This document shows, one piece after another, positions 20,711 to 51,396 of a stretch of DNA of 64,000 bases; positions within the stretch are counted from its first letter, which is position 1, and every line of letters starts with the position of its first letter. A program made the position numbers and the translations under genes. The notes under the pieces are model-generated. The model saw nothing but the letters and a program-made list of their open reading frames with translations, was not told the DNA's origin and did no database searches. The stretch lies in the NCBI RefSeq assembly GCF_055900595.2, contig NZ_CM148325.1, one strand, 5' to 3'.

Positions 20711-20750
20711 TCAGTGTATTGGTAGCTAAAAAGCCAGGGGCGGTAGCGTG
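20711..20750 (+). promoter_or_regulatory. JUMPStart element with ops site (GGCGGTAGCGTG at 20739..20750) in the wza leader
   Basis: Exact ops motif; cagtg...ggtagc...ggcggtagcgtg arrangement typical of RfaH-dependent polysaccharide operons. Confidence 0.8.
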
Positions 20751-20928: not shown

Positions 20929-22068
20929 ATGATGAAATCCAAAATGAAATTGATGCCATTATTGGTGTCAGTAACCTTGATAAGCGGTTGCACAGTACTT
21001 CCGGGCAGCAATATGTCGACGATGGGTAAAGACGTCATCAAACAGCAGGATGCTGATTTCGATCTCGACAAAATGGTGAATGTTTATCCGCTGACCCCGC
21101 GCCTGATTGATCAATTACGCCCACGACCCAACGTCGCGCGCCCCAATATGACGCTGGAAAGCGAGATTGCCAATTATCAATATCGTGTCGGGCCGGGCGA
21201 CGTTCTTAATGTCACCGTCTGGGATCACCCGGAACTCACCACTCCAGCTGGTCAGTACCGCAGCTCCAGCGACACCGGCAACTGGGTACAGCCTGACGGC
21301 ACTATGTTCTACCCGTATATCGGCAAGGTTCACGTGGTGGGGAAAACGCTCGCTGAAATCCGCAGTGATATTACCGGGCGCTTAGCGACGTACATCGCTG
21401 ACCCGCAGGTGGACGTTAATATCGCCGCCTTCCGCTCGCAAAAAGCCTATATCTCCGGTCAGGTGAATAAATCCGGTCAACAGGCGATCACCAACGTACC
21501 ATTGACCATTCTCGACGCCATTAACGCCGCAGGTGGCCTGACCGATACCGCTGACTGGCGCAACGTGGTGCTAACACACAATGGTCGTGAAGAACGCATT
21601 TCTTTGCAGGCGCTGATGCAAAACGGCGACCTCAATCAGAACCGACTGCTTTACCCCGGCGATATTCTCTACGTGCCGCGTAATGATGATCTGAAAGTAT
21701 TTGTGATGGGTGAAGTGAAGAAACAGAGCACCCTGAAAATGGACTTTAGCGGCATGACCCTGACTGAAGCCCTGGGCAATGCTGAAGGCATCGACATGAC
21801 CACCTCCAACGCCAGCGGCATCTTTGTCATTCGTCCGCTGAAAGGCGAGGGCGGGCGTAACGGCAAGATTGCCAATATCTATCAGCTGGATATGTCCGAT
21901 GCCACGTCGCTGGTGATGGCGACAGAATTCCGCCTGCAGCCTTATGACGTGGTGTATGTCACCACCGCTCCGGTTTCCCGCTGGAACCGTCTGATCAATC
22001 AGTTGCTGCCAACTATTAGCGGTGTCCGTTACATGACGGATACAGCCAGCGACATTCATAACTGGTAA
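20929..22068 (+). CDS. wza: Outer membrane polysaccharide export lipoprotein Wza (379 aa)
   Basis: ATGATG start at 20929; lipoprotein signal [21 protein letters not shown]. Confidence 0.95.
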
Positions 22069-44133: not shown

Positions 44134-44307
44134 ATTTGCGACCATTCCTGGAAAAATGGAGCCATACTTAGGAACAATGCTACTGCAATCCACAACGAAG
44201 CGGCGTAACATCACAAGTAATTCAGTAATCAATTCAGGGTAATTGATGCTGGCGAAAAAAATCGAACAAGCTATAATTCAGCAACCATTTTACAGGTGGA
44301 TGAAATA

Positions 44308-45201
44308 ATGACGAATTTAAAAGCAGTTATTCCTGTAGCGGGTCTTGGGATGCATATGTTGCCTGCCACTAAGGCGATTCCCAAAGAGATGCTACCGATC
44401 GTCGACAAGCCAATGATTCAGTACATTGTTGACGAGATTGTGGCTGCAGGGATCAAAGAAATCCTCCTGGTAACTCACGCGTCCAAGAACGCGGTCGAAA
44501 ACCACTTCGACACCTCTTATGAATTAGAATCTCTTCTTGAGCAGCGCGTGAAGCGTCAACTGCTTGCGGAAGTGCAGTCCATCTGTCCACCGGGCGTGAC
44601 CATTATGAACGTGCGTCAGGGCGAACCTTTAGGTTTAGGCCACTCCATTTTATGTGCACGACCCGCCATTGGTGACAATCCATTTGTCGTGGTGCTGCCA
44701 GACGTTGTGATCGACGACGCCAGCGCCGACCCGCTGCGCTACAACCTTGCTGCCATGATTGCACGATTCAACGAAACGGGTCGTAGCCAGGTGCTGGCAA
44801 AACGTATGCCGGGTGACCTCTCTGAATACTCGGTCATCCAGACCAAAGAACCACTGGACCGTGAAGGTAAAGTCAGCCGCATTGTTGAATTTATCGAAAA
44901 ACCGGATCAGCCGCAGACGTTGGACTCAGACATCATGGCCGTTGGTCGCTATGTGCTTTCTGCCGATATTTGGCCGGAACTTGAATGCACGCAGCCAGGT
45001 GCATGGGGGCGTATTCAGCTGACTGATGCCATCGCTGAACTGGCGAAAAAACAGTCCGTTGATGCCATGCTGATGACAGGTGACAGCTACGACTGCGGTA
45101 AAAAAATGGGTTATATGCAGGCATTTGTGAAGTATGGACTACGCAACCTGAAAGAAGGGGCGAAGTTCCGTAAAGGGATTGAGAAGCTGTTAAGCGAATA
45201 A
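44308..45201 (+). CDS. galF: UTP-glucose-1-phosphate uridylyltransferase-like regulatory subunit GalF (297 aa)
   Basis: ATG at 44308 ([28 protein letters not shown]...); track ORF used an upstream GTG. Confidence 0.93.
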
Positions 45202-45458: not shown

Positions 45459-45497
45459 CAGTGCACTGGTAGCTGTAAAGCCTGGGGCGGTAGCGTG
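45459..45497 (+). promoter_or_regulatory. JUMPStart element with ops site (GGCGGTAGCGTG at 45486..45497) for the O-antigen operon
   Basis: Near-identical to the wza-leader JUMPStart at 20711..20750. Confidence 0.8.
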
Positions 45498-45505
45498 TCT
45501 AGGGG

Positions 45506-46796
45506 CAGGGAAAGATTATCAGAAGTACACTTTTTGTACTAAATAATTCGCATTTTATGTTCAAAAATTGAGATATCCCTCATTACCTAAAACTGTTTTT
45601 CACAGCTTATATATGATCAAATACTCCTTGCTTAAATAAGGAGAACAAAATGGAACTTAAAAAATTGATGGAACATATTTCTGTTATTCCCGATTACAGA
45701 CAAGCCTGGAAAGTGGAATATAATTTGTCGGATATTCTACTGTTGACTATTTGTGCCGTCATTTCTGGTGCAGAAGGCTGGGAAGATATAGAGGATTTTG
45801 GGGAAACACATCTCGATTTTTTGAAGCAATATGGTGATTTTGAAAATGGTATTCCTGTTCACGATACCATTGCCAGAGTTGTATCCTGTATCAGTCCTGC
45901 AAAATTTCACGAGTGCTTTATTAACTGGATGCGTGACTGCCATTCTTCAGATGATAAAGACGTCATTGCAATTGATGGAAAAACGCTCCGGCACTCTTAT
46001 GACAAGAGTCGCCGCAGGGGAGCGATTCATGTCATTAGTGCGTTCTCAACAATGCACAGTCTGGTCATCGGACAGATCAGGACGGATGAGAAATCCAATG
46101 AGATTACAGCTATCCCTGAACTTATTAACATGCTGGATATTAAAGGAAAAATCATCACAACTGATGCGATGGGTTGCCAGAAAGATATTGCAGAGAAGAT
46201 ACAAAAACAGGGAGGTGATTATTTATTCGCTGTAAAAGGAAACCAGGGGCGGCTAAATAAAGCCTTTGAGGAAAAATTTCCGCTGAAAGAATTAAATAAT
46301 CCAGAGCATGACAGTTACGCAATGAGTGAAAAGAGTCACGGCAGAGAAGAAATCCGTCTTCATATTGTTTGCGATGTCCCTGATGAACTTATTGATTTCA
46401 CGTTTGAATGGAAAGGACTGAAAAAATTATGTGTGGCAGCCTCCTTTCGGTCAATAATAGCAGAACAAAAGAAAGAGCCAGAAATGACGGTCAGATATTA
46501 TATCAGTTCTGCTGATTTAACCGCAGAGAAGTTCGCCACAGCAATCCGAAACCACTGGCACGTGGAGAATAAGCTGCACTGGCGTCTGGACGTGGTAATG
46601 AATGAAGACGACTGCAAAATAAGAAGAGGAAATGCAGCAGAATTATTTTCAGGGATACGGCACATCGCTATTAATATTTTGACGAATGATAAGGTATTCA
46701 AGGCAGGGTTAAGACGTAAGATGCGAAAAGCAGCCATGGACAGAAACTATCTGGCGTCAGTCCTTGCGGGGAGCGGGCTTTCGTAATCTTGCCCTG
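45506..46796 (+). mobile_element. ISAs1-family insertion sequence (H-repeat-like), about 1.29 kb
   Basis: Imperfect terminal inverted repeats: cagggaaagatta at 45506..45518, and cagggcaagatta as the reverse complement of 46784..46796. Encloses a single intact transposase ORF. Boundaries approximate. Confidence 0.75.
45650..46786 (+). CDS. ISAs1-family transposase (H-repeat-associated protein, 378 aa)
   Basis: ATG at 45650 with RBS aaggag. The sequence [50 protein letters not shown]... is characteristic of H-repeat/YhhI-family DDE transposases. Confidence 0.85.
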
Positions 46797-46864
46797 AATA
46801 AACAACTTATTGATTCATGTGAATAAGTTACTCGAATGATATCTGTTGTATATGGGGCACTTCA

Positions 46865-48109
46865 TTGAGCAAAACTAAACTAAATGTTCTTTACCTTGCA
46901 ATAAGTCAGGGTGCCAATTACCTACTGCCATTATTAATTTTTCCTTATCTTGTTAGAGTCATTGGTGTATCGAATTTTGGTGATCTGAGTTTTTCATTGA
47001 TAACTATACAAGTGTTGTTAATGGTTGTTGAATATGGTTTTGGATATAGTGGGACAAGAGAAATAGCACTAAATAACGATAAAAAATACCATTCTGAATT
47101 TTTTTGCGGTGTGGTGCTTGCTCGTTTTATATTAATGCTAATTGCAGCTATTATACTCATAATACTCTGTTTTTTTTATGTTTTTAACGACGTTAAGTAT
47201 TTGTTATGTGTTGGTTTTCTGTCCGTAATTGCAGGTGTTTTCAATCCAAATTGGTTTTTGCAAGGTAAGGAAATGATGAGTGTGATGGCTGTGCTGTCAC
47301 TATTTTCACGAGGCATAGCAGTCGTTGCAGTTTATCTAATTATAAAACCCGCAACGCCGATGTACATCAGTGCCTTATTATTGAGCATGCCATATATTTT
47401 GTATTCATTCTGTGGCGTTGCCTACTTACTTATTATCAAGGAGATTTTTTTATGTAGGCCACCGATAAAGAAAATTCAAGTAATTTTAAAAAATGGATTT
47501 CATTTTTTTTGTTCAACACTTGCGACTAGTGCATACACAATGTTGACCCCTCTTGTATTGGGTGGCGTATCTGGAAAGTTTGATGTAGGCATCTTTAACT
47601 CAGCTAACATGATCAAACAAGGTTTGGCTGGACTTGCATCACCATTAGTCCAAGCTTTTTATCCAAGAATTAACATTTTGCAAAGAGAGAATCCATATAT
47701 TGCAAACTTAAAATCTAGAATGATTCTTAAATACTTGCTTGTTTTTTACATGGCTTTAGCAATGCCATTTTTACTTTTTGCCAACCAATTATCATTATTA
47801 ATATTCGGCATGAAAGGTGAAGTAATTGCAGGTGCAATGCAATTAATGACATTGCTTCCTATATTCATAGGTTTTAATACAGTTGTCGGGTTACTTGTAT
47901 TAGTACCTAATGGGATGCAAAAACAGTATTTCAAATCTATTTTCCTAGGAACTATTACTTGTTTAAGCATAGTTTATCCAGCATGTAAATATTATGGAGC
48001 AACGGGTGCGATTGTGAGTCTTATTGTAGCTGAAATTTTCGTTGGCATGGGAATGCTTAAACAATTCATTAAAGTAAATAAAACTGTATGTAGGCCTCAT
48101 AAATTATGA
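46865..48109 (+). CDS. wzx: O-antigen flippase Wzx (about 414 aa); start codon uncertain (TTG at 46865)
   Basis: Polytopic membrane protein, low GC; first gene after the JUMPStart/IS. No in-frame ATG upstream. Confidence 0.8.
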   Translation: MSKTKLNVLYLAISQGANYLLPLLIFPYLVRVIGVSNFGDLSFSLITIQVLLMVVEYGFGYSGTREIALNNDKKYHSEFFCGVVLARFILMLIAAIILIILCFFYVFNDVKYLLCVGFLSVIAGVFNPNWFLQGKEMMSVMAVLSLFSRGIAVVAVYLIIKPATPMYISALLLSMPYILYSFCGVAYLLIIKEIFLCRPPIKKIQVILKNGFHFFCSTLATSAYTMLTPLVLGGVSGKFDVGIFNSANMIKQGLAGLASPLVQAFYPRINILQRENPYIANLKSRMILKYLLVFYMALAMPFLLFANQLSLLIFGMKGEVIAGAMQLMTLLPIFIGFNTVVGLLVLVPNGMQKQYFKSIFLGTITCLSIVYPACKYYGATGAIVSLIVAEIFVGMGMLKQFIKVNKTVCRPHKL

Positions 48110-50361: not shown

Positions 50362-51396
50362 ATGTTTTCATCTAAAACACTGTTAATTACTGGTGGTACT
50401 GGCTCTTTCGGGAATGCTGTATTAAATAGATTTCTTGATACAGATATTGCAGAAATCCGTATATTTAGTCGTGATGAAAAAAAACAAGATGATATGCGGA
50501 AAAAATACAATAATCAAAAATTAAAGTTCTATATTGGTGATGTCAGAGATTACCGTAGTATTTTGAATGCGACTCGCGGTGTTGATTTTATATATCATGC
50601 AGCGGCACTTAAGCAAGTTCCATCATGTGAATTTCATCCTATGGAAGCCGTTAAAACTAATATCCTTGGTACGGAAAATGTTCTTGAAGCAGCTATAGCG
50701 AATGAAGTGAAGAGGGTTGTATGCCTAAGTACTGATAAAGCTGTATACCCGATTAACGCAATGGGTATTTCAAAAGCTATGATGGAAAAGGTCATGGTCG
50801 CGAAATCCCGTAATGTTGATCGCAATAAAACAGTAATATGTGGTACCCGTTATGGGAATGTTATGGCATCTCGCGGTTCAGTTATTCCATTATTTGTTGA
50901 TCTTATTAGAGCGGGCAAGCCACTCACAATAACTGATCCTAATATGACCCGCTTTATGATGACTCTTGAGGATGCGGTAGATTTAGTTCTTTATGCGTTT
51001 GAACATGGTAATAATGGTGATATCTTTGTGCAAAAAGCACCTGCAGCAACTATTGACACATTAGCTATTGCTTTAAAGGAATTACTAAATGTTCCAGACC
51101 ATCCGGTAAATGTCATTGGAACGCGTCATGGCGAGAAATTATATGAAGCTCTACTTAGTCGTGAGGAAATGATCGCTGCTATAGATATGGGTGATTATTA
51201 CCGTGTCCCGCCAGATCTTCGTGACCTTAATTATGGCAAATATGTTGAGCAAGGTGATAGCCGAATATCTGAAATAGAAGATTATAACTCTCATAATACT
51301 CAACGGTTAGATGTTGAAGGCATGAAAGAGCTCTTGCTAAAATTAGCCTTTATTCGAGCAATTCGTGCTGGTGAAAAATATAATCTGGATTCATGA
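50362..51396 (+). CDS. fnlA: UDP-GlcNAc 4,6-dehydratase/5-epimerase FnlA (344 aa)
   Basis: N-terminus MFSSKTLLITGGTGSFG; CapE/WbjB-type SDR. Confidence 0.88.
   Translation: MFSSKTLLITGGTGSFGNAVLNRFLDTDIAEIRIFSRDEKKQDDMRKKYNNQKLKFYIGDVRDYRSILNATRGVDFIYHAAALKQVPSCEFHPMEAVKTNILGTENVLEAAIANEVKRVVCLSTDKAVYPINAMGISKAMMEKVMVAKSRNVDRNKTVICGTRYGNVMASRGSVIPLFVDLIRAGKPLTITDPNMTRFMMTLEDAVDLVLYAFEHGNNGDIFVQKAPAATIDTLAIALKELLNVPDHPVNVIGTRHGEKLYEALLSREEMIAAIDMGDYYRVPPDLRDLNYGKYVEQGDSRISEIEDYNSHNTQRLDVEGMKELLLKLAFIRAIRAGEKYNLDS

Follow-up and report, generated by a model that had tools for sequence, protein, structure and literature searches.

Insertion sequences (IS) of the ISAs1 family have been implicated in the exchange of O-antigen clusters, both as IS1358 in the rfb regions of Vibrio cholerae O1 and O139 and as the H-repeat remnant in the Escherichia coli O157 cluster. 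These elements lie in another species or at other positions than the IS of the O15 locus analysed here, and are likened to it by description, not by sequence. The O15 cluster was reportedly first sequenced by Beutin et al. in 2005, in J Clin Microbiol. The IS within it is well known and is annotated in about a hundred RefSeq genomes. A full-text literature search returned no relevant account of O15 with an H-repeat or ISAs1 element; the 2005 O15 cluster paper lay outside its scope.

In E. coli, the replacement of O clusters has been described as driven by IS elements (PMC4379981), and ISAs1 remnants occur in newly described O clusters (PMC9705854). In Salmonella enterica group D2, according to the summary of Xiang et al. 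(1994) given in PMC3715488, a remnant H-repeat is found at an O-antigen recombination junction. As summarised there, the D2 element resembles that of O15 in lying exactly where DNA of different origin meets, and was proposed as mediator of the join. The D2 element is a remnant in mid-cluster, between D1-type and E-type genes, whereas the O15 element is complete and lies at the 5' edge, beside the ops site. The model proposed for Salmonella D2 and V. cholerae is extended here by three unrelated O clusters (O15, O88 and O3) that diverge at the right end of an H-repeat. That O15, O88 and O3 have in common an H-repeat block abutting ops adds modestly to this known picture, and the comparison of the three serogroups is mildly useful for understanding O-antigen cluster swaps.

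The ISEc1 element of the O15 locus

The DNA analysed (the window) was a stretch of 64,000 nucleotides from RefSeq assembly GCF_055900595.2, contig NZ_CM148325.1. It was identified as carrying the E. coli O15 O-antigen locus from the RefSeq annotation of a matching strain: in a megablast search of 5,426 complete E. coli genomes, the region was 100% identical over 1901 bp to strain M160133, in which the two ORFs are named 'ISAs1 family transposase' and 'O15 family O-antigen flippase'. The features of the region are listed in Table 1.

Table 1. Features of the galF–wzx region, in coordinates of the window
Feature	Position	Strand	Basis or remark
galF	44296-45201	+	upstream of JUMPStart
JUMPStart, 39 nt	45459-45497	+	Rfam RF01707, full model, 49.6 bits (gathering score 35), E=9e-10
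ops site GGCGGTAGCGTG	45486-45497	+	exact pattern match, inside JUMPStart
8-bp spacer TCTAGGGG	45498-45505	+	between the 12-nt ops and the IS
ISEc1-like IS, 1291 bp	45506-46796	+	ends set by many independent copies
Left terminal inverted repeat CAGGGAAAGATTA, 13 nt	45506-45518	+	inverted-repeat pair and end-motif search
Predicted 7-bp hairpin pairing the transposase Shine-Dalgarno (TAAGGAG, 45637-45643) with CTCCTTG	45624-45643	+	minimum-free-energy fold
Transposase gene, ATG start, 378 aa, uninterrupted	45650-46786	+	ORF listing, domain matches, YhhI alignment
Nested-insertion site ACAAGCCTGG	45700-45709	+	unoccupied in the window; the nested IS follows the equivalent of 45709
Right terminal inverted repeat CAGGGCAAGATTA, 13 nt, complete	46784-46796	-	inverted-repeat pair and end-motif search
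O15-specific leader, 68 bp	46797-46864	+	between IS and wzx
wzx, O15 O-antigen flippase, first O-antigen gene	46865-48109	+	RefSeq annotation of the identical M160133 stretch

An initial annotation, made from the letters alone, had placed an ISAs1-family (H-repeat) element between JUMPStart/ops and the first O-antigen gene, and the positions in Table 1 bear out this layout. The leader belongs to the JUMPStart/ops type: the JUMPStart holds ops (GGCGGTAGnnTG), the RfaH loading signal, and the O15 genes lie downstream on the same strand. The ops pattern was found at two sites only in the window, the second (20739-20750) being ahead of the colanic-acid cluster, which is upstream of the O15 locus. 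The wzx ORF has a TTG start and encodes 414 aa; it is followed by genes for a glycosyltransferase, the O15 wzy, fnlA, wbjC, wecB, more transferases, gnd, ugd, wzzB and the his operon. The G+C content was about 0.40-0.43 in the IS, 0.31-0.36 in wzx and 0.50-0.55 in galF.

The element is a complete ISEc1, an ISAs1-family IS also called the E. coli 'H-repeat'. Its 378-aa product matched the equivalog model for ISAs1 family transposases, NCBIfam NF033564, with 415.9 bits (cut-off 70 bits; E=1e-124), and contained the Pfam domains DDE_Tnp_1_assoc (PF13808, N-terminal) and DDE_Tnp_1 (PF01609). It aligned over its full length and free of gaps with YhhI of a K-12-type strain (369/378 identical, 98%), which carries the RefSeq label 'ISAs1-like element ISEc1 family transposase'. 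These matches confirm the initial family assignment, and the claim that the transposase ORF is intact and oriented like the operon likewise held, the gene being on the + strand as is wzx. With one 378-aa ORF in 1291 bp and short inverted repeats, the element has the structure of its family (expected size ~1.2-1.4 kb).

The yhhI copy of ISEc1, at RhsB of E. coli K-12, has the same 1291-bp length and the same ends as the O15 copy, and the two are 96.8% identical in DNA (96.8-97.5% across the Rhs-linked copies). They differ in location: the yhhI copy is at the end of an Rhs element, whereas the O15 copy is inside an O-antigen operon leader. The boundaries first proposed for the IS proved exact, since dozens of independent ISEc1 copies, in unrelated contexts of E. 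coli genomes, matched precisely query positions 101-1391, that is 45506-46796. An extra 12 bp of left flank seemingly common to the yhhI copy and the window agreed at 8/12 positions on direct reading, and was set aside as a chance BLAST extension.

The terminal inverted repeats, described at first as imperfect and of 13 bp, are complementary at 12/13 positions. A degenerate motif for these ends was matched exactly at the two IS ends only, within the 64-kb window, in which 0.32 matches with up to one mismatch are expected by chance. The JUMPStart, ops, IS and repeats are all far beyond chance.

Occurrence, target site and later changes at O15 loci

The O15 wzx was present in 99 of the 5,426 complete genomes, at full length in 98. 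Both IS junctions were found in every one of the genomes with an intact O15 wzx (98/98), which answers the comparison of galF–wzx junctions that had been proposed at the outset; the left-junction 40-mer and the right-junction 40-mer each matched 98 genomes and nothing else. More broadly, a galF end with an IS nearby was found in 158 genomes, of which ~139 were assigned to a serogroup (98 O15, 25 O88 and ~16 O3). No genome among the 5,426 covered the joined O15 flanks, and in metagenomes the sole contig with the O15 right flank was colinear with the window, IS included, and offered no empty site either. Alignment to an empty site, named in the initial annotation as a test of the boundaries, thus has no such site on record to draw upon. 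A relative of the O15 wzx was likewise absent from 100,044 species-representative genomes. The presence of the IS in all 98 loci, with no empty site, makes it a fixed, ancestral part of the O15 locus, probably inherited rather than recently inserted. For the window itself the IS is of little consequence; every O15 locus has it as a regular, annotated component, and the serogroup is recognised with the IS in place.

No target-site duplication was found at the O15 IS, as the initial annotation had already noted: the left flank TGTCTAGGGG and the right flank AATAAACAAC are identical at 2/10 positions, so that the flanking duplication expected of an ISAs1-family element is absent. None was seen at the three other resident copies examined. 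That the family makes duplications is evident from a sister element at the same locus. In 63 of 98 O15 genomes, a second, distinct ISAs1-family element (1291 bp, 95.7% identical) was nested inside the resident IS and flanked by a 10-bp duplication of ACAAGCCTGG; in locus L003, this 10-mer was present on both sides as a perfect repeat. The duplication of the O15 copy was therefore lost or never made. Its absence is informative, yet it is not specific evidence, because most old ISEc1 copies beside Rhs elements also lack duplications; in this respect the Rhs copies and the O15 copy are alike.

The single-IS form seen in the window is the minority form (about 35 genomes). Further rearrangements were observed in individual strains. 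NCTC86 carried the nested IS and was missing 158 bp beside the nested copy; in PS1Phumofeces1 the IS pair had collapsed to a 204-bp fragment and one hybrid IS; and PKF4 had a deletion from the IS into wzx. IS-adjacent deletions thus do occur at the O15 locus, the 158-bp loss of NCTC86 being the case beside the nested IS. The IS is tolerated there, as judged from its presence in 98/98 intact loci and from the doubled 2.6-kb version being common.

Junctions of the O15, O88 and O3 loci

Similarity to the region broke off exactly where ops ends in most E. coli genomes; O15, O88 and O3 were the exceptions. The O88 (25 genomes; locus L011) and O3 (~16 genomes; locus L013) loci had a JUMPStart by Rfam match, followed by ops, TCTAGGGG, 77 more bp and an ISAs1 copy in operon orientation, after which came serogroup genes unrelated to each other. 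They are thus like the O15 locus in having ops with TCTAGGGG, the same IS orientation, and serogroup-specific genes from the right IS end onwards. They differ in that O88 and O3 keep the 77 bp and have shortened right ends, with the transposase gene split in O3, whereas O15 has a complete copy and none of the 77 bp.

The right IS end of O15 is complete, ending in CTTGCCCTG and followed directly by AATAAAC; the O88 copy is 3 bp short at this end and the O3 copy about 9 bp. Beyond the right end the DNA was unrelated among the three serogroups, with no similarity of the 68-bp leader to the O88 or O3 flanks, and the right-junction 40-mer and wzx matched O15 genomes only. The sequence common to the three loci extends from galF over ops and the H-repeat block as far as the right IS end, or to a few bases short of it. 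Because the serogroup-specific DNA starts at the right IS end in all three, the IS appears to mark the left boundary of O-specific DNA. The suggestion in the initial annotation that the IS may mark a recombination junction is supported by this arrangement, and fares better than its companion idea of an effect on expression.

On the left side, the 84-bp stretch in O88 and O3 opens with CTAGGGGAAGATCATC, a slightly diverged left end resembling that of the IS (IRL-like). In these loci, ops and the ISAs1 copy are separated by one base, a 16-bp old H-repeat end and some 68 bp of other DNA, in that order. In the alignment the O15 spacer TCTAGGGG consists of T and CTAGGGG, the first 7 bp of the old H-repeat end, with the next 77 bp absent. 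The spacer is accordingly read as a stump left by the left end of an older H-repeat, so that H-repeat-derived DNA begins 1 bp after ops. The pattern of ops followed by TCTAGGGG was absent from the species-representative genomes, and no genome covered the joined O88 flanks as an empty site.

Some 2,300 genomes have a better-preserved version of the stretch, CAGGGAAAGATCACCG followed by GTGTGCC, upstream of their Rhs-linked H-repeats; there it continues into 120 nt that match RF01999, a model of a group II intron domain, with 81.8 bits. GTGTG is the usual 5' end of group II introns, and an E. coli group II intron has been described inside H-rpt. Since the sequence after the 16-bp IS end starts with GTGTG, and since the Rhs-linked version matches RF01999, the 84-bp block may be what remains of an H-repeat into which an intron had inserted. 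A search of viral contigs for a full-length copy of the suspected intron was negative.

These junctions bear on the simplest account of the IS, in which ISEc1 jumped into an already assembled O15 leader and its duplication decayed or was never made. Such a jump would leave two complete ends and an intact transposase gene, as observed; the sister element did transpose into the O15 locus, and in another serogroup an IS1 sits 3 bp after ops, so the spot can receive IS insertions. We nevertheless consider plain transposition very improbable, given flanks that agree at 2/10 positions only, the lack of an empty site in the 5,426 genomes or the metagenome contig, and a left 8 bp that the H-repeat-derived O88/O3 block has and ordinary leaders lack. 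The statement that the IS was inserted 8 bp downstream of ops is thus correct as to the gap, but a simple insertion into the O15 leader is not borne out, there being no empty site and the spacer itself looking like H-repeat remnant. A simple deletion by recombination of the IRL-like stump with the true IRL was also considered; it predicts a junction beginning TCTAGGGAAAGAT, the observed one being TCTAGGGGCAGGGAAAGAT, and was rejected.

Between two O15 forms, identity was 100% over the first 204 bp of the IS, 96.1% over its remainder and 99.7% in wzx, and the variant IS positions formed a patchwork of alleles common to other genomic copies. The divergence of the IS bulk relative to wzx, together with these patchwork alleles, makes it evident that homologous recombination through the IS also played a role. 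The O15, O88 and Rhs copies are about equally distant from one another (96.8-97.5%), so that orthology of the O15 and O88 copies is not demonstrable; gene conversion among IS copies is likely. The mosaic identity and the hybrid IS of PS1Phumofeces1, which reflects homologous recombination between IS copies at this very place, would also suit a purely passive role, in which nothing depends on the transposase and the IS, being present in several O loci and in many genomic copies, lets RecA-dependent recombination reshuffle O-antigen genes and convert its own sequence. Homologous exchange within the IS does not, however, account for the 3 to 9 bp by which the right ends differ in O88 and O3, or for the 77 bp missing on the left of O15, for which illegitimate or transposase-mediated events are needed, and we regard a wholly passive patch as unlikely.

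Possible read-through and proposed origin of the block

The transcript that picks up RfaH at ops would have to read through the IS, as its orientation permits, and the transposase would be the first ORF on this RfaH-modified transcript. No terminator-like hairpin was detected on the + strand of the IS (two were found on the - strand), and on the + strand of the 68-bp leader there was neither a promoter-like nor a terminator-like site. G exceeds C on the + strand along the whole IS, which would make it poor for Rho loading. Read-through by the operon transcript is plausible on these features. No second ops was found 3' of the IS.

A 7-bp hairpin sequestering the transposase Shine-Dalgarno (Table 1) was predicted by folding. 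The fold was indistinguishable from that of shuffled sequence (z=-0.12), and a control element over the transposase ribosome-binding site was therefore rejected; the hairpin is at most a possible translational brake.

All ISAs1 copies at these loci (O15 resident, O15 nested, O88 and O3) have the same orientation, passable by a transcript from ops, which is what selection for operon expression would leave. This uniformity, the fixation of the IS in all O15 loci and the PKF4 deletion from the IS into wzx could also be taken to mean that the IS is kept for O15 expression, as a promoter, an RfaH-tuning leader or a rearrangement switch. An IS-borne outward promoter into wzx was rejected, however, as none was found at the right IS end or in the leader, and promoter-like matches were at chance level (6 found, 5.0 expected). 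Moreover, the locus tolerates doubled, deleted and collapsed forms of the IS, and in O3 the transposase gene is split and the IS end shortened. The O3 damage and the tolerated variants look like marks of neutral decay rather than of conserved function, and co-option as a regulator seems extremely unlikely.

On balance, we favour as the probable reading that the IS is the fixed remainder of an H-repeat block abutting ops and common to O15, O88 and O3, which marks the left O-specific boundary and is read through. The IS probably served as a break or homology point by which the O15 genes were joined to the conserved galF–JUMPStart region. A three-step order of events is proposed with moderate confidence. 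In an ancestral locus an H-repeat would have inserted 1 bp behind ops, later to be degraded and overlaid by another copy. Different O-specific gene sets would then have been joined at the right IS end via IS-associated illegitimate events. In the O15 line, finally, an adjacent deletion would have removed 77 bp on the left. Deletion mediated by the IS end would be the simplest route for this loss, and would leave the intact left end 8 bp from ops without a target duplication. Together these steps would account for a stump common to the three serogroups, for the lack of a duplication and for there being no empty site. Neither a donor nor an intermediate was found, and no O15 locus keeping the 77 bp, so the direction of events rests on parsimony.

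A bolder version, which we find quite doubtful, would treat the H-repeat block behind ops as a portable 'adaptor': an ISAs1 element at ops+1 would repeatedly have captured or exchanged entire O-antigen gene sets at its right end. As the transposase would be the first ORF of an RfaH-driven transcript, expression of the O-antigen operon would stimulate rearrangements there. This version would cover O15, O88, O3 and perhaps about 19 further genomes not assigned to a serogroup.

In practical terms, rough or non-typeable variants may plausibly arise through the IS, as the PKF4 deletion into wzx illustrates. The O15 galF–wzx interval occurs in at least four sizes, which affects typing by long PCR and assembly from short reads.

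Nested ISAs1 copies within the resident element

A second ISAs1 element, 95.7% identical to the resident ISEc1-like copy (window 45506-46796), was found inside the latter in 63 of the 98 O15 genomes. The nested element is bounded by a 10-bp duplication, ACAAGCCTGG, and the equivalent site in the window lies at 45700-45709. Derived arrangements were also detected: NCTC86 carries a nested form with an adjacent deletion of 158 bp, and in PS1Phumofeces1 the pair has collapsed to a 204-bp fragment and one hybrid IS. H-repeat-type elements thus transpose in nature, and the nested O15 copies, with their duplication and derived forms, are direct evidence of it. The coordinates of the nested copies, and those of an 84-bp segment described below, are listed in the table.

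Coordinates of nested ISAs1 copies and of the 84-bp segment
Feature	Locus	Coordinates	Background
Nested ISAs1 element	L003	9305-10595	other O15 genome
Nested ISAs1 element	L002	6512-7802	other O15 genome
Nested/derived ISAs1 form	L016		other O15 genome
84-bp segment	L011	7300-7383	O88
84-bp segment	L013	6053-6136	O3
84-bp segment region	L014	3004-3208	Rhs-linked
84-bp segment	L015	3001-3084	Rhs-linked

The resident IS of the window and that of L003 were identical over the first 204 bp, and the remaining 1.1 kb differed at 32 sites and by an 11-bp insertion (96.1% identity). The adjoining wzx is 99.7% identical between the same two O15 forms. Such a mosaic of identity suggests gene conversion of the resident IS from other IS copies.

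IS copies near galF and the 84-bp segment

The end of galF and an ISEc1-like copy were located close together in 158 complete E. coli genomes, about 139 of which were assigned (98 O15, 25 O88 and about 16 O3); the remaining 19 or so may represent additional serogroups in which an IS lies close to the JUMPStart. In the O88 and O3 loci, a diverged copy of the 84-bp segment is found directly 3' of ops. The segment consists of the 16-bp left end of an H-repeat followed by sequence beginning GTGTG, and where it is Rhs-linked, in about 2,300 genomes, it continues into a 120-nt match (81.8 bits) to RF01999, a model of group II introns. Judged from this arrangement, the segment resembles what would be left of an H-repeat into which an intron had inserted. 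No full-length copy of the suspected group II intron was found in the viral contigs searched.

Other insertions and deletions at O-antigen loci

Another IS immediately follows ops in a different serogroup: in strain FACU 2024, whose O-antigen cluster has rmlB first, an IS1A lies 3 bp downstream of ops on the opposite strand (L004 4238-4270). In the O15 locus of strain PKF4 (L010 4861-6471), the resident IS lacks its 3' part and wzx its first 774 bp; this strain is presumably an O-antigen-negative deletion variant.

Further features of the window

The fnlA gene (50362-51396) is an intact ORF of 344 aa, and matches fnlA of strain 22a, where the gene is likewise intact, at 1033 of 1035 positions. 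In the RefSeq annotation fnlA is frameshifted in M160133 and NCTC86; the window therefore differs from the M160133 record at this gene and is not its base-for-base equal. The exact ops, GGCGGTAGCGTG, occurs a second time in the window (20739-20750), about 180 bp upstream of the ORF that heads the colanic-acid cluster (20929-22068); it represents the JUMPStart that this operon would be expected to have. The 12-mer AACTTATTGATT was found twice, within the transposase gene (46386-46397) and in the O15 leader (46804-46815). CAACTTATTGAT also belongs to the IS1 terminal repeat of L004, which accounts for the BLAST extension across the artificial join of the O15 flanks. The 12-mer is AT-rich, and its repetition is probably due to chance.
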